A DNA stretch of 32,000 bases from Methanocaldococcus jannaschii DSM 2661 (GTDB taxonomy: Archaea > AGJL01 > Methanococci > Methanococcales > Methanocaldococcaceae), in NCBI RefSeq assembly GCF_000091665.1, contig NC_000909.1, positions 90,870 to 122,869 of the forward strand, in the 5' to 3' direction. The notes beneath the pieces are model-generated. The model was given only the letters and a program-made list of their open reading frames with translations. It had not been told where the DNA came from and made no database searches. Shown piece by piece: positions 2,033-27,361 of the stretch. Position numbers and translations under genes: made by a program. Position 1 is the first letter of the stretch, and every line of letters begins with the position of its first letter.

Positions 2033-2428
2033 TTACTCAAAAATCTCAATTGCTTTAAATGGACAGGCTTTTAAACAGTTTTTACAGCCGACACAGTCCT
2101 CTTCTTTGAATACTACATTATAATCCTCATCCATATAAATTACATTAATAGGGCATTGGGTTATGCAACAGCCACAATGCACACACTTCTCCAAATCCCT
2201 TTTTATAACTTTAGAGATTTCCTCAACTTCTCCAAATTTTGATAGATAATTTAAAGCTTTCTCTATAGTTTCTTTACTACCAAACAATTCCAATATCAAA
2301 AATGCCTCCTGTGGCTCTACCTTAGCTTTTAATATGTTTATCTTAACTCCTGTATTTAATATAGTATCGGAAATAACTGGCTTGTTTATATGCTCTGAAT
2401 CTGTCCAGTAATACACTCTCTTTCTCAT
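2033..2428 (-). CDS. NIL-domain / 2x[4Fe-4S] ferredoxin protein (homocysteine biosynthesis partner)
   Basis: 131 aa. The N-terminal region is NIL-like and the C-terminus carries [12 protein letters not shown] and [12 protein letters not shown] ferredoxin motifs. It overlaps the upstream gene by 4 nt, suggesting translational coupling. Confidence 0.8.
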
Positions 2429-3954
2429 TTTTTCCCTCCGAATAATCTTGAGATATCTTCAGATGTTACAATGCCCACAACTCTTCTGTAGTCATCAACC
2501 ACTGGAACACCAGAAATGTTATATTTACTCATTTTTATCGCTACATGGTCAACGGGTTCATCTTCATGAGCAGTTATTACATTTCTTGTCATAATCTCTT
2601 CAATTGTCTTTTTGTTTTGAGCAAGAGCTTTAGCTATATCCCACGATGTAATTATTCCCACTAACTTCCCATGTTCATCAACTATAGGAAGATGGTTTAT
2701 ATTATGCTTTATCAAAATCTTAGCAGCTTCCATAATGGATATATTGCTATGAGCAGTTATTGGTGGTTTGCTTAAAATATCCTTAACTAATGTTATTGGT
2801 GACTTCATTGGCTTGTTTTCAGCTCTTCCTAAAGTATCAACCCTCTCAGTTAGTAAAAACTTCCCATCCAAAATCCACTGTTTGAGGGTTTCAGCAACCT
2901 CTCTTGCCATCTTATAACTTGAAACAGAACCAGTTTTTACGGTTTTTTCAACATCTTTCCCATCTATATTTACATTTAATGTTATTTTTCCACTTCTTAA
3001 CACTTTATAGTTTGTTTTTGCTATTAATGGTCTATCCCTCCTTGGAAATCCATAATCATAGATTGGCACTTCAATATCTTCATCTCTAATAGCACATCTC
3101 TCAGCTATCTTTTCATTTAAAACTGGGATTGGGATGCCTATACCAACATACAACGTGCTTCCATACCTTGGCATTGTAGCAGCCCTTATAAATTTAGGAT
3201 TCATCTGTTTTAAATCTCCTTTAACCATTAATGTTCCAAATGGTGGGTTATGCTGTGTACCCTCACCAATTACATATCCAATTCCTCCTCCTAAGAAAAT
3301 CCTTGTTCCAATACCTATGGTATTAAATGATTTTGTTTCTGGGTTATAATCATTCTGTAAAGGATTTAACTGTCCAGCGCCTGAATAATGAACGTTGTTA
3401 TATTCAGGAAGTAGAATGCCCATGTAGGTGTATATTTTCTCCTCCCTACTGTTTGTTGCTGCAGCATAAGTTTGATAGCAATTTCTTGGATTAACCATAA
3501 TTGCCTGATTAACATCATCTAACGTTATTCTAACATTAACCTCCTTCCTTGGATAGCAGTCAGTTGTATATCCCTCAGCATAAAGCTCAACTTCCTTTCC
3601 TCTAACTAAATCCTCTATAACATGAGCTCCTCCGTAATCAATATCTACATCTGGGTCTTCGTTCGGTTGTGCAGCTCCTATATAAGCATCAACAGCAGCT
3701 AAACCTCCATAAGCTTCAACATTGTTTAAATAAATCCTTAACATCTTTATTGGCGGGTCTGAATGTCCAAAGTTTATAAATACTCCAGATGAGCACATAG
3801 CTCCAAATGTTCCTGTTGTAACAACATCAACATAATCAGCCGCTCTTTTAGCTCCTTCTTCCTCAACTATTTTTATCATCTCTTCCGCTGTTACAACAAC
3901 AGCCTCTCCTTTTTTAATCTTTTCATTAATCTCTTTGATTGTTTTCATAATCAT
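2425..3954 (-). CDS. COG1900 (DUF39) domain protein with C-terminal CBS pair; sulfur-incorporating homocysteine biosynthesis enzyme family
   Basis: 509 aa. A long N-terminal COG1900-type domain is followed by two CBS motifs ([20 protein letters not shown] and [20 protein letters not shown]). The start is more likely the third codon (ATG at 3948), given GAGGT spacing. Confidence 0.85.
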
Positions 3955-6556: not shown

Positions 6557-6668
6557 TGGTGCCGAGGGAGGGATTCGAACCCTCGACCTCCCGGTTTCCC
6601 AGGACCCAGGCGTAAAGCCTGGGATATCCGTATGAGCCGGGCGCTATAACCAGCTAAGCCACCTCGGC
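6557..6668 (-). tRNA. tRNA-Met (anticodon CAU) with a ~35-nt intron 3' of position 37; CCA encoded. An Ile2-type CAU tRNA cannot be excluded.
   Basis: The reverse complement reads GCCGAGGTGGCTTAGCTGGTTATAGCGCCCGGCTCATA[intron]ACCGGGAGGTCGAGGGTTCGAATCCCTCCCTCGGCACCA. Acceptor, D, anticodon and T arms all pair. Confidence 0.9.
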
Positions 6669-6759: not shown

Positions 6760-6847
6760 GCGGGGGTCGCCAAGCCAGGTCAAAGGCGCCAGATTGAGGG
6801 TCTGGTCCCGTAGGGGTTCGCGGGTTCAAATCCCGTCCCCCGCACCA
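6760..6847 (+). tRNA. tRNA-Leu (anticodon GAG), long variable arm, CCA encoded
   Basis: GCGGGGGTCGCCAAGCCAGGTCAAAGGCGCCAGATTGAGGGTCTGGTCCCGTAGGGGTTCGCGGGTTCAAATCCCGTCCCCCGCACCA folds as a class II cloverleaf. Confidence 0.93.
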
Positions 6848-17382: not shown

Positions 17383-17483
17383 ATTTTTATTCCATATTGG
17401 TCTGATTTTAATGAAATGTTTATTCTTGGAGAGCCACACATTATTTGTGATGAGTTTCCATTCCGAATCGGTCTGATTTTAAT
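17383..17483 (-). CRISPR. CRISPR mini-array 2: 2 repeats (one degenerate), 1 spacer, with full leader
   Basis: 17454-17483 is GTTTCCATTCCGAATCGGTCTGATTTTAAT. 17383-17412 is ATTTTTATTCCATATTGGTCTGATTTTAAT (6 mismatches). The spacer is 41 nt (17413-17453). Confidence 0.8.
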
Positions 17484-17821: not shown

Positions 17822-19288
17822 TTAAGCTGTTTGATTCTTCTCCTTCCATTCTTTTAATATCTTATCCCAGTTATTTCTTAAGAAGTCACCAACTTGAGAT
17901 GAATCTCTTGTTCCAACAACACATGTCCAGCCGGTTTTGTCTTCAATATCTCCTCTTGTAGAAGCAGCTAAAGCTGGCAATATTATTATCCTGTGGCTAA
18001 CTTTATCAGCGATTCCTGTCTCTTCAATTAATTTTTTAGCATTTTCTCCATTATACTGCCCTCCTGCAACTGAAACATCAACAGCCTTTCCTCCAGTGTC
18101 CATAACCAATAGCCAGCAGGTAACGTTATCTTTCTCAAAGTCTCCTGTAACTGTGTAGAATGTTAATGAGAAGTTTGTTGTTAATATAACTGGGCTGTTT
18201 TCGTCTGGATTGCCAATTGGGTATAAGCCTGGCTCAACTGCCTGTGGCTTTCTTGGGTCTGTATAGATACACTGTCTCAATGTTAGGACTGGCATTAATT
18301 CCCATATATCCATTCCATGCATAATTAAAGCATCTGCATATCTGTTCATCAATGTATTGGCTATTGTAGCCTCAAACATCTTAGCAACAACCTCTTTATC
18401 CTCAAAAAATCCAGAGATTGGGCATTCATTTTTTAAAGCATAATAATAAGCGTTAATTGGTAAATTTAATATTGGAAATCCTAAGTATTTATCTTCCTTC
18501 TCAATAGCACTCCTCCTAATCATTACATTCAAATCTAATGTTTCAGCGATATTTTCTGGGTATGTGTGAGGTTCTAAAACTAAATCTTCAATACCATTAG
18601 CTAAGCACTTTGCAGCCATGTTTTTTAAATCTTTAACATTATTTGATGATAAAACCAAAACAACGTCCTTTTTAACTTCTTTAATAACCTTTATGAAATC
18701 ATTTAACGTTTCTTTTGTTGCGGCATAGACCATTGGCTTTGATTTAACAACTTTTAAAGCTTCCTTTATAACCTCCGGATTTAATGAGGCAATGCAAATA
18801 GGCATCTTTGTTTCTTTTTCAACAATTTCTATAGCTTTTTTAAACTTCTCAACATCTCCAGATGCATTTCTTATAACAATAAAGTCTAATTTTAACTTTT
18901 CTCCAGTTCTTTCAAATACAAAGTTCTCTATTTCCTTAGCTCTATTTTTAATTTCTTCTTCACTTAACTCGTCGCTAATATCAACACCAATTGGTGTAGG
19001 GTTAAAGAATGATAACTGATATCTATACATTACCTCGTCTCCACCCATAACCGCCTTTTTTTCTTCGTTCCCAAACCAAACTTCTTTTACTGGTGGAGAG
19101 ATAAGCTCTATAATCTTCTTTTTATTTTTCTCAAATTTTGGGGTGTTTAATATAGGACATTGGTCAATTGTTGCCTCTTTCTCTAACAGTTTTGTAGCAA
19201 ATGCCATGCATGACGGATAACCGCATTTTTTACAGTTTGTTTTTGGCAGTAATTTGTAAATATCCATTGCACTAATCTTTTTTGGCAT
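17822..19288 (-). CDS. cdhE: acetyl-CoA decarbonylase/synthase gamma subunit (corrinoid/Fe-S protein large subunit)
   Basis: 488 aa. The N-terminal CX2CX4CX16CP [4Fe-4S] motif is CKKCGYPSCMAFATKLLEKEATIDQCP, followed by a TIM-barrel and a corrinoid-binding C-terminus. Confidence 0.93.
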   Translation of the reverse strand: MPKKISAMDIYKLLPKTNCKKCGYPSCMAFATKLLEKEATIDQCPILNTPKFEKNKKKIIELISPPVKEVWFGNEEKKAVMGGDEVMYRYQLSFFNPTPIGVDISDELSEEEIKNRAKEIENFVFERTGEKLKLDFIVIRNASGDVEKFKKAIEIVEKETKMPICIASLNPEVIKEALKVVKSKPMVYAATKETLNDFIKVIKEVKKDVVLVLSSNNVKDLKNMAAKCLANGIEDLVLEPHTYPENIAETLDLNVMIRRSAIEKEDKYLGFPILNLPINAYYYALKNECPISGFFEDKEVVAKMFEATIANTLMNRYADALIMHGMDIWELMPVLTLRQCIYTDPRKPQAVEPGLYPIGNPDENSPVILTTNFSLTFYTVTGDFEKDNVTCWLLVMDTGGKAVDVSVAGGQYNGENAKKLIEETGIADKVSHRIIILPALAASTRGDIEDKTGWTCVVGTRDSSQVGDFLRNNWDKILKEWKEKNQTA

Positions 19289-20896: not shown

Positions 20897-20985
20897 GGCG
20901 CGGGGTACCGGGCTTGGTAGCCCGGGGCGGACTTCAGATCCGTCGAGGGCGAGAGCCCTCGGGGTTCGATTCCCCCCCTGCGCCG
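20897..20985 (+). tRNA. tRNA-Sec (anticodon UCA), 9/4 acceptor/T-stem architecture, CCA not encoded
   Basis: GGCGCGGGG/CCCTGCGCC is a 9-bp acceptor stem. The D-stem CCGGGC/GCCCGG is long, the anticodon loop is CTTCAGA, the extra arm is GAGGGC-gaga-GCCCTC, and the T-stem is 4 bp (GGGG-TTCGATT-CCCC) with discriminator G. Confidence 0.9.
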
Positions 20986-21004: not shown

Positions 21005-21916
21005 ATGGAGAAAGTGTATTCAAAATTTGGAAGAATTGAAGATTTAAAAGAAATTATTTCTGGATTGGTTAATTTTACAGGAATTATTAGAATAGACAAT
21101 GCCCTTCTCTTTTACATTGACTCAAAACTTATCTCATCAAAGTTTAATGGTAGAGAAAAAAGTTTAGAAGAGATATTTTCACAAATTCCAGACGAGTTTT
21201 TAATAGAGATTTATCAAGGAAATGAAAAGGAAGTAAAATCTGCTCTTATAAATTTTAAACCAGAGGAATCTATTGTTGAAATTTCTAAGCTAAGCCTGGT
21301 TTTTGAGAATGAGGTTATTTTGAATTCTTACAACGATGTATATAAATATTTAACTTACATAAATAAAGTTATTTTTATGCCAAAAAGATTTAAAAATGAA
21401 AAAGGGATTGTTGTTTATAAAAACAAGAGAGAGGTTTTTGCAGTATATTTTGGTAGAAAAACTTTATTTGGGAAGAAAGCAATTAGCAAACTAAAAACAA
21501 CATTTGCCGTTAGTGAAATAATTGCAAAAATTGAGAAAATATCCAATGAAGAATTAAATTCTTTAAAAAATCAATATCCTGAAGGCGTTTTATTGTTTGG
21601 AGATTCAATTAACGATGTTGTTAAGAAAATAATATCTTCAAAAAAACCTATAATCTTAGAAAATGTTTCATTGATTGATGCTCTATCTTACGGAACATGT
21701 TTAATTAAGATTGAGGGTAGTGAAATTGGATATATTGTAGCTAAAGATGGAAAACCAGTATATGCATTTTTAAATGATTATGATGGAGAAAAAAGTTACA
21801 GATTGTTAAAGAGCATGTGTATTGTTGAAGATGTTAAATACTCCATCTATAAGCTATCAAAAGAAGAGTATGACATGTTTAAAACATTTCAGGAAAACAA
21901 AATCCCATTATCTTAA
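21005..21916 (+). CDS. hypothetical protein (303 aa) with an apparent threefold internal repeat
   Basis: Intact ORF. Three ~55-aa segments each end in similar strings: [22 protein letters not shown] and [12 protein letters not shown] recognise no family. Confidence 0.6.
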
Positions 21917-22380
21917 TCCTTATCAATCATTTTTATAGCCATTTCATAGGCTTTCTTTAAATCTCCTGTCTCTAAGATACATTTTTCAGCAATATCTTTT
22001 GGAATGCCTTTTTTAACAAAAACTTCCACTGCCTCTTTAAAAAACTGGCTATTTCTTATAATTTCCTCAGCAAGCTGTTTTTTTAGCTCCATGTATTCAT
22101 CTGGACTTATGTTGTTTTTAGCAAGCTCATAATCCCTGTAAGGGCAGGGTTTTGTTATTTTACAACACCAAACTAAACTACCAAAGCATGTATTTTCTCC
22201 TAAACCAAGTTTTGTCCTCTTTCCAAATTCTTCCTTTATTCTTATAAACTCCTCTGGTGACATTTTCAATACAGCTAACGCTTTATGAATAGGACAGTAT
22301 TTTATTGGAGGACAGCAAAAAGCTAAACCTCTCAAATCTCCTCCCCTACATATATGAGATGGAGCATTCTCCCAGCCCAT
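21913..22380 (-). CDS. Cys-rich conserved hypothetical protein with a duplicated CC-x5-CP ... SP(E/D)E(F/Y) module
   Basis: 155 aa. [10 protein letters not shown]...[13 protein letters not shown] is repeated as [10 protein letters not shown]...[13 protein letters not shown]. Confidence 0.65.
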
Positions 22381-24084: not shown

Positions 24085-24345
24085 AATAAACACCTCATAA
24101 AATTAGATTCTGTTCCTTTAAAATTAATTATAATGTAGTAATATAAAAAGATTGAATTGGTGAATTTGCTTTTTCATTATTTGAGTTTAAGAGATATATA
24201 TTACTTAGGTTTATCCGCAAACTTTATTTATGAATTTAGATAATAAAATTTAAATTTTTAATTTTCTTAAAGTAATATTAAATTTATCGAAAGTATTATA
24301 AAGGTTGAAAGAAATAGTAGAGTTATGAAAAATGAGGTGAAATTT

Positions 24346-24828
24346 ATGAGTGAAGTGATAAAGGTTGTTGATGTAAAAATATTTCCACACAGATATTTGA
24401 AGGCAGAAACTACAGAGAAGGTATTAAATGAGATTTATGATTTGGATGGAATTGTTAGGGTTATAGTTCATGGACAACCCTTGCCAAAAACTGTTCCATT
24501 TGGTCCTGCAAGAGGATTGCCTGTAAATCACCAAGATAGAAAAGTTATTAAGGTTAAAGGCGAAGAAATGGAATTGAGAGTTAAAGTTGGAGAGATAATT
24601 ATAACAGTTGAAGGAGAAAAACTTGAAAAGATAATGGATGGAATAGAAGAGATATGTAAAAGAAACTTCCCATTTGGATATGATATCTATGTAGGTGCAT
24701 TTACTAAAATAAAGCCAACTGTAACTGATTATATGAAGTATGGAGATATTAGCAGTATAGACCCAAGATTGATTGGCATGGTAGATGCATCAGCAAGATT
24801 AAAAGATTCTGTAAAGATGATAAAATAA
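24346..24828 (+). CDS. mrtD: methyl-coenzyme M reductase operon protein D homologue (McrD/MrtD), stand-alone
   Basis: KIFPHRYLKAETTEKVLNEIYDLDGIVRVIVHGQPLP is a typical McrD N-terminus. ATG at 24346 follows GAGGTGA; the ORF-track start is 24325. Confidence 0.85.
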   Translation: MSEVIKVVDVKIFPHRYLKAETTEKVLNEIYDLDGIVRVIVHGQPLPKTVPFGPARGLPVNHQDRKVIKVKGEEMELRVKVGEIIITVEGEKLEKIMDGIEEICKRNFPFGYDIYVGAFTKIKPTVTDYMKYGDISSIDPRLIGMVDASARLKDSVKMIK

Positions 24829-24853: not shown

Positions 24854-25498
24854 TTAAAATACTTTCAAATCAATACCTTCTATATAAACTCTTTTTCCCT
24901 CAACTTGCACTACTACTCCAGAATGAACCTTCTGCATCATACAGTGTTTTGGGATAAATTTAACAGTTTTTCCAACCTCTGGAACTTTACCTTCTACAAT
25001 TCCCTCAAATGCAACAACTATCGCTATACCAACATCTTTATACTCTATTTTTTCCCCAGTTATCCTATGGCTCGGTCCCACTACATGGATTATATAAAAG
25101 CCATGATACTCATCGATTATTTTAGCAAAGTGTGGAATTGGACAACCTAAAGGTCTATATCTTATATAATCTCCAACTTTAAGCTCTTTTTTATCCATAA
25201 TTAATAGTGTCTCTCTACAAGAACATTCATTTGGTAGAGGTTTTAATAGAAAATCTGCCTCATATCCATCAATAACTCCAATGTATTTTTCCTCTTTTTT
25301 AATTTTTCCTTTAATCTTTAAAATCTCTTTTAATTTTTCATAGTTTTCTTTAAATCTCTCCCTAAGCAAAAATGGGCAGTCCTCTAATTTTACATCTTTA
25401 TTTAATAATGCCTCAGCAAATAAATCACATCTCTTATAACCACAAGCTCCACAATTGAATCCTGGAAGATATTTGGTAATTTCATTTACATCGACCAT
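24854..25498 (-). CDS. protein with an N-terminal CdhE/RnfB-type [4Fe-4S] domain and an unknown beta-rich C-terminal domain
   Basis: [27 protein letters not shown] has the same CX2CX4CX16CP spacing as the CdhE N-terminus in this window. The likely start is ATG 25498, one nt after the upstream stop and preceded by GGGGAG. Confidence 0.7.
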
Positions 25499-25499
25499 T

Positions 25500-26201
25500 T
25501 TACTCCCCTTCATATTCCATGAATCCATCTATTCTTCTTAAAATTCCTCTGTGATACTTTTTACTAACTCTTGTCTCTCCAACACATAAGGTGCAAATAC
25601 ACAATGGAGCGTTGTGTCTTAGCTCTTCATTTTCTAAATCTTTAATATCTTTGCTTTCAATAATCTCCTTGGCTATTTCAACACATCCCTGCCCTGTAAG
25701 TCCATTAACTTCATAAATTCTACAATTTGGGTTCATCTCTAAAACTCTTTCTCTAAAAACTTCTCTTTCAGCTTGAGAGATGATATCTCCTTTGGTTATA
25801 ACTACAATATCTGCACTTGTTAAGAACGGCCCTACTTTTCTTGGCGTGTTCGGCCCTGAAGTGGCATCAATGACACAAATTCCCAAACTGTTTTTTGTGT
25901 AAGGGGCACATCTATGGCAGAGACCAGCAGTTTCTATTAGTAAGATATCTCCCTTATCCTTAGCCCAATCAACCATTTCTTCAAAGTTGTATATTGCAAA
26001 GTGGTCTGGGCACATATCCTTACTTAAACCAACTAAAACAGGGATGCCCAATTTTTTATACCTGACATCATCGTCAGTATATAAACAGTCAATTTTTACA
26101 ACTACTGGCTTATATCCTTCATTAATTAAGGTTCTTATTGTGTGAATTAATACTGAAGTCTTTCCAGCTCCAGGGGTTCCTGCAACTATTGCCACTTTCA
26201 T
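25500..26201 (-). CDS. G3E-family (HypB/UreG/CobW-like) P-loop GTPase, putative metallochaperone
   Basis: [10 protein letters not shown]-loop, [12 protein letters not shown] (switch II followed by a Cys/His cluster), TKGD (NKxD-like), and a C-terminal CICTLC. The start overlaps the upstream stop (ATGA). Confidence 0.75.
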
Positions 26202-26983
26202 CCTTTCACCATTAGGCTTATATCTTCATGAGTCAATCTCTCTCCAAACCTAATCTTTTCTCTTAAAGAGAGTAGCCAGTTATCAACCTCATTTATTTTT
26301 CTTGAAATTTCCTTCTCTTCTTCAGTAGTTTCTATAATCTTCTGCATTCCTCCGTTTCTCATCACTATCCTTCTATCAGTCATTAAAGCCAAGACAGGGT
26401 CGTGAGTTATAACTAAAACAATCTTTCCATATCCTGCCAATAACTCTAAAGCCTCATGCTTCTTTATTCCAGCGTTTTCAATCTCATCTATTAAAACTAT
26501 GGGAGAATCGCTTATTACAGCTACATCAGCAACCATTAAACTTCTTGACTGCCCTCCACTTAGGATTGTTAAGTTGTAGTCTTTCTTTATTGGCTCTCCT
26601 GTTAATCTATTTGCTAATTCTATGACTTCATCAACAATATTTTCTCTATAAACTCCCCTACTCTTCGCATGCATTAAAATAAACTCCTCTACAGTCATGT
26701 CTGCTAAAAAATTCATGTTTTGAGATAGTTGGGCAATTCTTCTCTTTTTTGGGTCTCTTCTCATCTCTATTGGAGGAACTTCTCCATTAACTAAAATTCT
26801 TCTCTTGGAGATGGTATCTCCTTGAGCTAACTGCTCTATATCGCTGATTAAATTTGATTTCCCACTTCCTGTTGGCCCAACAACACCGACAATCTCTCCT
26901 CTTTTTATTGTAACCTCCCTTACAGGTTCTGGATTGCCGTTCTTGTCATAACCACCGATAATTGTTATCTCCTTAATTTCCAT
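26198..26983 (-). CDS. soluble ABC-type ATPase (single nucleotide-binding domain, no permease partner in the operon)
   Basis: GPTGSGKS Walker A, LSGGQ signature, VLIDEIE Walker B and ITHD H-loop. Confidence 0.85.
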
Positions 26984-27189
26984 ATTCCCATCCTAAAAAT
27001 TATTTTTTCTTATAAGAAAAATTGATATATATATTTACATTATAAGGTTATTTACAATTACTATTGGATAAACAGTTTTATATAATTTTTGATTTTTTGC
27101 AGAATAATTTAATCTATTAATTTAAATTAATAAATATAAAAGATAAAAAAAGAAAACACCTCTTAGATGAAATTTATTTCTAAAAAAAG

Positions 27190-27312
27190 ATGTATCTACC
27201 CTTGGAAAACCGTGGCCTTCATTGAAGCCATAACGGCTACTCGGCACGGCCGCCTTGTGGGTAGAATGCCGAGGTGGTTTCATCCCCTGCGGAAGGTCGC
27301 CACCCGGGACAT
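27190..27312. ncRNA. GC-rich structured island, candidate ncRNA or 3'-UTR structure of unknown class (strand unresolved)
   Basis: ~120 nt of ~60% GC in AT-rich spacer. Helices: TCTACCC (27195-27201)/GGGTAGA (27259-27265), GGTGG (27273-27277)/CCACC (27300-27304), and an internal CCGTGGCC hairpin. An alternative helix CTCGGCA (27240-27246)/TGCCGAG (27267-27273) is possible. ACA triplets follow the stems on either strand. Confidence 0.5.
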
Positions 27313-27361
27313 ATATTAATTTATGCAAATTGTGGTATATATATTTTATTCCAACAATTAT

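Follow-up and report, generated by a model that had tools for sequence, protein, structure and literature searches.

The window analyzed here is a stretch of 32,000 nucleotides (about 31% G+C) from the genome of Methanocaldococcus jannaschii DSM 2661 (NC_000909.1, positions 90,870 to 122,869), whose gene content includes cdhD/cdhE, mrtD, a tRNA-Sec gene, and methanogen marker genes. On its minus strand lies an operon of three genes coding for an ABC ATPase, a G3E-type GTPase, and an iron-sulfur protein of the family COG2000. These three genes, hereafter called the module, recur in the same order in other genomes, and the genes that are conserved beside them very probably place the module in the biosynthesis of sulfonates, such as coenzyme M and products derived from cysteate.

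The operon and its immediate surroundings

The three genes (Table 1) are translationally coupled, as an earlier note on this DNA had proposed. The reading frames of the ABC ATPase and the GTPase share an ATGA overlap (26201-26198), and the stop codon of the GTPase gene (TAA, 25502-25500) is followed by a single A (25499) and then by the ATG of the COG2000 gene (25498-25496), which is preceded by GGGGAG. An alternative in-frame ATG for the COG2000 gene is present at 25528. The start after the 1-nt gap agrees with the annotated junctions in M. vannielii and in M. maripaludis (MMP0271/MMP0270, 270743 / 270741), where MMP0271 is equated with the window GTPase by its annotation and by its position adjoining comA. 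The same note had described the operon as divergent from the stand-alone mcrD/mrtD homolog; the two are in fact convergent, with 25 nt between their 3' ends. Unrelated genes lie between cdhE and the three-gene operon.

Table 1. Positions of the operon genes, their diagnostic segments, and nearby genes in the window
Feature	Positions	Strand	Remarks
ABC ATPase gene	26983-26198	minus	261 amino acids; M. maripaludis ortholog MMP0272
G3E GTPase gene	26201-25500	minus	233 amino acids; M. maripaludis ortholog MMP0271
COG2000 Fe-S protein gene	25498-24854	minus	214 amino acids; M. maripaludis ortholog MMP0270
Presumed operon promoter: AT-rich upstream spacer with TATA-like boxes	26984-27120	minus	sequence reading only
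ABC ATPase, Walker A GPTGSGKS, residues 36-43	26855-26878	minus	sequence reading; conserved in alignment
ABC ATPase, signature LSGGQ, residues 141-145	26549-26563	minus	sequence reading; conserved in alignment
GTPase, Walker A GTPGAGKT, residues 8-15	26157-26180	minus	
GTPase, invariant C64-P-D-H67	26001-26012	minus	pairs with the Ni-binding CPH of UreG 4hi0_E and 5xkt_A in a phmmer alignment
GTPase, switch II / Walker B ETAGLCHRC, residues 90-98	25908-25934	minus	C95, H96, and C98 invariant
GTPase, invariant C203-x-x-C206	25584-25595	minus	within nearly invariant C-terminal tail, residues 197-233
COG2000 protein, N-terminal [4Fe-4S] domain (PF04060)	25370-25468	minus	C16, C19, C24, C41; Pfam 51.7 bits vs. 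cutoff of 23
COG2000 protein, family-specific beta-rich C-terminal domain	24857-25297	minus	invariant D82, R95, R115, C119, H123, C186, H192
Stand-alone mcrD/mrtD homolog	24325-24828	plus	TIGR03260, 232 bits
cdhE	17822-19288		5.6 kb from the operon

The three encoded proteins

The ABC protein matches the Pfam model PF00005 (ABC_tran) with 56.4 bits against a cutoff of 25, and an alignment of 77 homologs shows that Walker A, the Q-loop, the LSGGQ signature, Walker B, and the H-loop are all kept. Against families and structures of transporter nucleotide-binding domains (NBDs) it reaches only 45-59 bits, which is well under every curated cutoff, and its scores with the NCBIfam transporter models are likewise far too low for assignment. 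The closest solved relatives are the NBDs of MacB, ArtP, and BceA, at E values near 1e-12. This similarity is one reason to ask whether the protein energizes a distant permease for the uptake of sulfite, sulfonate, or metal, with the GTPase and COG2000 proteins as accessories; another is that the M. maripaludis proteins were formerly annotated as putative nickel transporters. However, no membrane protein is conserved beside the module. Among 104 loci, a protein with at least four transmembrane segments is encoded within two genes of the module in just seven, and these proteins fall into five unrelated clusters. Moreover, the ABC gene invariably occurs coupled with those for the GTPase and COG2000. 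Such a transport function is therefore extremely improbable, and the ABC ATPase is predicted to be a soluble, permease-less, single-NBD protein, much as the earlier note had surmised. No transmembrane segment is predicted in any of the three proteins.

The GTPase had been assigned to the HypB/UreG/CobW type, and this assignment stands. It matches PF02492 (cobW; 52.9 bits vs. a cutoff of 20.7), and its AlphaFold2 model has the SIMIBI/G3E fold and superposes best on UreG (4hi0_E, 5xkt_A) and HypB (2hf8), with a Foldseek probability of 1.0 and template modeling (TM) scores of 0.6-0.7. Nevertheless, the protein falls below the equivalog cutoffs for both HypB (TIGR00073, 51.2 vs. 121.2 bits) and UreG (TIGR00101, 35.6 vs. 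204.2 bits). It also lacks the marks of the COG0523/CobW zinc chaperones, having neither a CxCC motif nor a CobW_C match, and its score with ZigA is 15 bits against a cutoff of 600. Hydrogenase or urease maturation genes are not a conserved neighbor of the module across 166 loci. The protein is well conserved, with 68-72% identity among Methanocaldococcus, Methanobacteriales, and one metagenome-assembled genome (MAG) of Bacteroidales. Judging from these sequence comparisons, it represents a distinct new subfamily of G3E P-loop GTPases.

Several features of this GTPase hint at metal binding or at a dedicated partner. Both Cys/His motifs that had been pointed out previously, ETAGLCHRC and CICTLC, are present, and within CICTLC family-wide invariance is limited to C203 and C206. 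Residue C39 is likewise invariant in the family alignment. The G4 motif is T136-K-G-D139 throughout the family, such that the Lys and Asp of the usual NKxD are kept and the Asn is replaced. Almost no variation is seen in the final 37 residues, yet the AlphaFold2 model leaves them unfolded or disordered (predicted local distance difference test [pLDDT] scores below 50). Because such conservation is at odds with predicted disorder, the tail probably adopts its fold on binding a metal or a partner protein. A NifH-like role in electron transfer was also considered for the GTPase, but no NifH-type structure is found among the 50 top-ranked matches listed, and the idea is retained solely within the most specific mechanism proposed below.

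The COG2000 protein has 667 homologs with 50-70% identity, and its AlphaFold2 model has a pLDDT of 86.9. Its N-terminal domain carries the cluster motif C16-x2-C19-x4-C24-x16-C41-P42. As the earlier note had recognized, this domain is of the CdhE type: it is 40% identical over 55 amino acids to the N terminus of the CdhE protein encoded in the window (E 2e-11), and the model superposes on the corrinoid/Fe-S protein CoFeSP (2ycl_A; Foldseek probability 1.0, root-mean-square deviation 2.2 Å) and also on 4c1n_G. The kinship ends there. With the full-length CdhE model NF003195 the COG2000 protein scores 37 bits against a cutoff of 306, the match being confined to residues 16-70, and PF04060 is a generic redox domain that occurs in RnfB as well.

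The remainder of the COG2000 protein is a domain for which there is no Pfam model and no significant Foldseek match to a fold in the PDB. Matches to the barrels of eIF2-gamma and the A-ATPase B subunit were set aside, as they have TM scores of 0.16-0.2 and E values above 0.01. No fusions of the domain to others were found: the 77 matches among 1.84 billion representative proteins share a single architecture, being either proteins of about 210-230 amino acids or fragments. In an alignment that reaches members with 29-36% identity, the invariant residues are the four cluster cysteines plus the set in the C-terminal domain (Table 1), which is predicted to form a Cys2His2 site accompanied by two arginines. 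Together with the CPH-like motif of the GTPase, these residues would fit a metal site that is served by a dedicated G3E protein. In one locus (L152, 7926-8657), the COG2000 gene has no detectable ABC or GTPase genes adjacent to it and adjoins a gene for geranylfarnesyl diphosphate synthase.

Distribution and gene context of the module

A scan of the GTDB species genomes recovered relatives of the COG2000 protein in 277 of them. A metagenome scan contributed another 80 loci, and the complete locus set has n = 166. Loci were dereplicated at 85% COG2000 identity. Gene calls are approximate in high-GC contigs, and the taxon labels of bacterial loci derive from MAGs. The best 80 of the 277 are 50-60% identical to the query. 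The archaea among them are Methanococcales, Methanobacteriales, Methanolobus, Methanomethylovorans, and the anaerobic methanotrophs ANME-2, whereas the loci with bacterial MAG labels are assigned to Sporobacter, Clostridiales, Anaerofustis, Spirochaetes, and Bacteroidales. With few exceptions among the 166 loci, the order ABC ATPase, GTPase, Fe-S protein is preserved, mostly with overlapping or 1-nt-spaced genes, and thus the arrangement seen in the window is not a chance association.

ComA or cysteate synthase is encoded in the locus in 45 of the 57 dereplicated groups with enough flanking sequence (ComA in 23, cysteate synthase in 22). Among the 53 dereplicated complete loci, 42 have a gene for one of these two enzymes directly beside the module and in the same orientation (ComA 22, cysteate synthase 20). 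By comparison, ComD or MMP16 holds this position in seven of the 53 loci, most of which have cysteate synthase upstream, and ComE holds it in none. The identities of these neighbors pass the NCBIfam cutoffs (TIGR03844, 457-601 vs. 325 bits; also TIGR03845, TIGR03846, and TIGR03287). Given conserved neighbors that comprise ComA, cysteate synthase, ComDE, and MMP16/ComF, it is highly probable that the module plays an accessory role in the biosynthesis of sulfonates, serving coenzyme M in archaea and cysteate-derived products in bacteria.

The details of the arrangement vary with lineage. In Methanobacteriales and Methanococcales, the module is preceded by ComA. Loci of the Methanosarcinales type and high-GC loci have cysteate synthase, the module, ComD, and ComE in succession, with MMP16 in the opposite orientation at the end; in the Methanosarcinales type, the module thereby lies within the coenzyme M operon. 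In two loci (L114, L118), MMP16 is directly upstream of the module. In Sporobacter and Clostridiales the module is followed by cysteate synthase, a BioF/SPT-like acyltransferase, and a short-chain dehydrogenase/reductase, and in Anaerofustis by cysteate synthase and the acyltransferase. The published sulfonolipid pathway employs cysteate synthase, CFAT, and ketocapnine reductase (PMC11211663), and the gene order of the Clostridia-type clusters mirrors this route. These clusters contain neither ComDE nor MMP16, and the thiolation step is not needed in them. In a bacterial contig on which FabG and FabF are encoded as well, the module is followed by cysteate synthase, an aminotransferase, and a PanE-like reductase. 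In Bacteroidota, the module stands alone and adjoins either Rrf2 (CymR-like) and Crp regulators or a histidine kinase with a NarL-type regulator.

These arrangements bear on what the module might do within the pathway. It could aid, or provide a backup for, the late step of coenzyme M synthesis, in which sulfoacetaldehyde is reductively thiolated, as a partner of or an alternative to MMP16/ComF. The location of the module inside coenzyme M operons beside ComDE and MMP16 would suit such a role, and a backup route for ComF is known in M. acetivorans (PMC12068725). Yet the module also adjoins cysteate synthase in the sulfonolipid-like clusters, whose pathways make no thiol, and the FabG/FabF contig, with its cysteate synthase and aminotransferase, points to no thiol product either. 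Furthermore, adjacency to the first enzyme outnumbers adjacency to the last by 42 to 7. A role in the late step is consequently quite unlikely.

The earlier note had instead sought the client of the module among nickel or corrinoid enzymes, specifically ACDS or methyl-coenzyme M reductase (MCR), for which the module would provide nucleotide-driven insertion of a metallocenter or reductive activation. The [4Fe-4S] domain shared by COG2000 and CdhE/CoFeSP and the proximity of the operon to mrtD and cdhDE in the M. jannaschii genome speak for this possibility. However, adjacency to mrtD is seen in three Methanocaldococcus loci only, all convergent, and mcr or cdh genes are not a conserved neighbor of the module across the 166 loci. 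The domain itself is of a generic redox type. In addition, the module occurs in bacterial-labeled MAG contigs, and several of these have bacterial-type neighbors (FabG/FabF, the type IX secretion system, two-component systems). Neither the neighborhood nor the distribution of the module follows nickel or corrinoid enzymes, and such a client is very improbable, even in view of the co-elution data given below.

Other recurring neighbors were noted in particular lineages. CofE, TFIIE-alpha, HD, and PK_C-domain neighbors were assigned to lineage synteny of the Methanobacteriales and dismissed as functional links. In six ANME-2-type loci (L078, L079, L125, L126, L128, L131), genes for a flavoprotein of the geranylgeranyl reductase family and for a small TatD-associated radical SAM protein (TIGR04038) are directly upstream of the module. 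A block of ComA, the module, and CofE occurs twice in tandem in a 2.36-Mb metagenome contig (L096, 4970-14442), which reflects either duplication or an assembly artifact. Finally, a LarC-type nickel-insertion gene (PF01969) is convergent with the module and just downstream of it in five loci of Methanococcus and Methanothermococcus (L003, L008, L009, L023, L166); this adjacency may be lineage synteny of the Methanococcales or a further hint of nickel.

Expression data and previous reports

The colocalization of these genes with coenzyme M genes has been published already, but not their function. A figure legend in Chadwick et al. (PLoS Genet 2025; PMC12068725) describes an ATPase, a Ni-binding GTPase, and a COG2000 Fe-S protein as often colocalized with coenzyme M genes and of unknown role. 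No mention of MJ0119-0121 or MTH1671-1677 was found in the literature, and the view of the earlier note that no function had been assigned to the operon is upheld.

Proteomic data link the module to ComA in M. maripaludis. According to the supplements of Xia et al. (PMC2723118), MMP0273 (ComA), MMP0272, MMP0271, and MMP0270 were all detected, and the levels of the four increased in concert when phosphate was limiting (log2 0.87-1.15). Under H2 limitation, the same supplements show MMP0273, MMP0272, and MMP0271 falling together (-0.79 to -1.23), with values for these three only. Thus, the module proteins of this organism are co-expressed with a pathway enzyme.

A second proteomic clue concerns the GTPase. 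MMP0271 is among the proteins that co-elute with Strep-tagged HypB in M. maripaludis, as are ACDS subunits (2026 JBC paper; PMC13202556). This co-elution may reflect a nickel link of the GTPase. It can be counted in favor of an ACDS client, and it can also be counted in favor of a role in maturation, which is considered next.

The module might be a maturation system in which the GTPase and the ABC ATPase insert a metal or Fe-S center into a pathway enzyme, for instance MMP16/ComF or the oxygen-sensitive ComDE, with COG2000 as scaffold or electron donor and sulfite chemistry not involved. The G3E metallochaperone fold and CPH-like motif of the GTPase argue for this role, as do the position of MMP16 directly upstream of the module in two loci and the operon block that ComDE and MMP16 share with the module in Methanosarcinales-type loci. 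Against it, the immediate neighbor in 42 of 53 loci is an enzyme that needs no metallocluster, since ComA is a Mg2+ enzyme and cysteate synthase depends on pyridoxal phosphate. The Clostridia-type clusters, moreover, contain none of the candidate clients. COG2000 bears an invariant Cys2His2 site of its own, which makes it the most straightforward client for the GTPase. Maturation of another pathway enzyme is thus unlikely.

A possible role in sulfite supply

The two enzymes most often found beside the module are unrelated. ComA is a TIM-barrel enzyme that acts on phosphoenolpyruvate, whereas cysteate synthase is a pyridoxal phosphate enzyme that acts on phosphoserine, and sulfite is the co-substrate of both (PMC3087415, PMC12713407). 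The module is tied to whichever of the two a lineage uses, including in bacterial clusters that make no thiol. Because these enzymes differ in ancestry and carbon substrate and have sulfite in common, we tentatively propose that the module produces or hands on the sulfite, S(IV), with which ComA or cysteate synthase forms the C-S bond in sulfide-dependent anaerobes. We regard this role as a serious possibility that falls somewhat short of being probable. Sulfite is required for coenzyme M synthesis, and its source in sulfide-grown methanogens is unresolved, the earlier candidates Dsr-LP and alSir being missing from some methanogens (PMC3448663, PMC6286981).

If the module supplies sulfite, the three proteins might divide the work as follows; substrate, metal, and reaction direction are inferred here. 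COG2000 would be a redox-active metalloprotein whose [4Fe-4S] domain acts as a relay that feeds or drains the Cys2His2 metal site, and the two invariant arginines flanking that site could hold an oxyanion. The UreG/HypB-like GTPase would load or gate the site, possibly with nickel. The ABC ATPase would perform ATP-driven conformational work, either for assembly or for pushing an unfavorable redox step.

A more specific version of this proposal is that the module is a nucleoside triphosphate-driven, strictly anaerobic "sulfite synthase" and would, as such, represent a novel type of enzyme system. At the Cys2His2 site of COG2000, sulfide or a protein persulfide would be oxidized to S(IV), and the electrons would leave through the [4Fe-4S] domain of the protein, with the GTPase and/or the ABC ATPase paying for their uphill transfer in a highly reduced cytoplasm. 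The product could then be channeled straight to ComA or cysteate synthase, which would keep free sulfite away from MCR. We consider this version doubtful.

Several observations weigh against a role in sulfite supply in general. Linkage of genes is guilt by association, and another need that is shared by these pathways would fit equally well. To our knowledge, six-electron oxidation of sulfide by a small Cys2His2/[4Fe-4S] protein is without precedent, and we know of no ABC ATPase or G3E GTPase that drives redox chemistry. Neither mutant data nor biochemical or genetic tests of the three proteins were found in the literature. Twelve of the 57 dereplicated loci have no ComA or cysteate synthase gene within reach of the locus, among them Methanocaldococcus including the window itself, Bacteroidota, Spirochaetes, and others. 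In M. acetivorans, cysteate synthase, ComDE, and MMP16 are kept together with no module adjacent, and so in this organism the module is either dispensable or encoded elsewhere. Care must also be taken with bacterial labels. The contig L078, labeled as Anaerolineales in its MAG, matches the locus L079 of Ca. Methanocomedens (ANME-2) in gene order and gene lengths (geranylgeranyl reductase, radical SAM protein, ABC ATPase, GTPase, Fe-S protein), and downstream it carries an archaeal-type cysteate synthase and a fused ComDE; this contig is probably mis-binned.

Implications

Coenzyme M is indispensable to all methane formation and to anaerobic oxidation of methane and alkanes, and it acquires its sulfonate group from sulfite. 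The majority of methanogens, however, live on sulfide, and in their cytoplasm sulfite is both unstable and toxic to MCR. The origin of the sulfite has been debated since the 1980s, and no convincing enzyme has emerged (PMC3448663, PMC6286981). The module is a candidate that can be tested genetically in M. maripaludis (MMP0270-0272), and it shares operons with both of the unrelated enzymes that add sulfite. If its involvement were borne out, the finding would also bear on the supply of cysteate for sulfonolipids in anaerobic bacteria of guts and sediments, and the module might become a target for methanogen-specific inhibition. Even if the sulfite proposal is wrong, the operon offers a new subfamily of G3E GTPases, an ABC ATPase that lacks a permease, and a protein domain that has no solved relative.

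Other features of the window

A protein of 509 amino acids that clusters with MMP16/ComF (COG1900) is encoded at 2033-3954 on the minus strand, along with a 131-amino-acid partner whose gene overlaps its end. This pair is probably the L-aspartate-semialdehyde sulfurtransferase of homocysteine synthesis. Upstream of the module, a GC-rich island (27193-27330, minus strand) lies in the AT-rich spacer between the ABC gene and a gene for ribose-1,5-bisphosphate isomerase. The island can form two hairpins with GA-rich loops, each followed by ACA, and thereby resembles an archaeal H/ACA guide small RNA (sRNA). Its Rfam match is weak (Pyrobaculum H/ACA sRNA 201, E 0.56), and the z-score of its fold, -1.28, is not significant.

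The tRNA-Sec gene is located at 20897-20984 (plus strand, 72.5 bits). Two additional tRNA genes are present at 6560-6668 (minus) and 6760-6844 (plus), the former of which spans 109 nt and probably contains an intron. Four CRISPR-type direct repeats occur at 1430-1662, and a lone copy at 17454-17483 is distant from any array. The minus strand also encodes, at 21913-22380, a protein with a methanogenesis marker 9 domain (TIGR03277, 197 bits). Its gene shares 4 nt with the end of an oppositely oriented open reading frame of 303 amino acids (21005-21916) that has no family match.

Comparison with known systems

Known candidates for the proposed purpose of the module are Dsr-LP and alSir, siroheme proteins acting in reverse that would meet the same need of sulfite for ComA or cysteate synthase (PMC3448663, PMC6286981). 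They are unrelated to the module and are unlinked to com genes, in contrast to the module, which is linked to the enzymes that use sulfite.

Individual components can be compared with better-known proteins. The GTPase resembles UreG and HypB in its fold, its Walker A motif, the ExxG of switch II, and its Cys-Pro-(Asp)-His motif. It departs from both in the extra invariant cysteines (C39, C95, C98, C203, and C206), in its invariant 37-residue tail, in having TKGD rather than NKxD as its G4 motif, and in remaining under both equivalog cutoffs. Furthermore, its gene never adjoins those for urease or hydrogenase, its constant neighbors being the ABC ATPase and COG2000 genes. The N-terminal domain of COG2000 has the CX2CX4CX16C motif in common with CdhE/AcsC and RnfB (PF04060). 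However, COG2000 has neither the corrinoid-binding nor the TIM-barrel domain of CdhE/AcsC, is 214 rather than 488 amino acids long, and consists for the remainder of its family-specific beta domain with the predicted Cys2His2 site.

Permease-less cytoplasmic ABC ATPases that power machines for metallocofactor assembly or enzyme activation are represented by SufC of the SufBCD Fe-S assembly system and by AtwA, component A2 of MCR. No specific sequence kinship to either was found for the module ABC protein, whose best matches are generic transporter NBDs. AtwA contains two NBDs and is roughly double the size of the module protein, and SufC works with SufBD in place of a G3E GTPase and COG2000. 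The GTPase-coupled ATP sulfurylase CysDN is a precedent for hydrolysis of GTP driving an unfavorable step in the metabolism of sulfur oxyanions. Its families are nonetheless unlike those of the module, with an EF-Tu-like GTPase and a PAPS-reductase-like ATP pyrophosphatase, and its starting point is sulfate. An analogy to sulfate activation by CysDN and APS reductase was rejected for the module, as the chemistry of ABC and G3E proteins does not match it and sulfate is not a sulfur source for sulfide-grown Methanothermobacter (PMC3087415). Overall, the components of the module come from known superfamilies, and the module is new as a system, with a composition and a gene linkage that are shared by no characterized counterpart.

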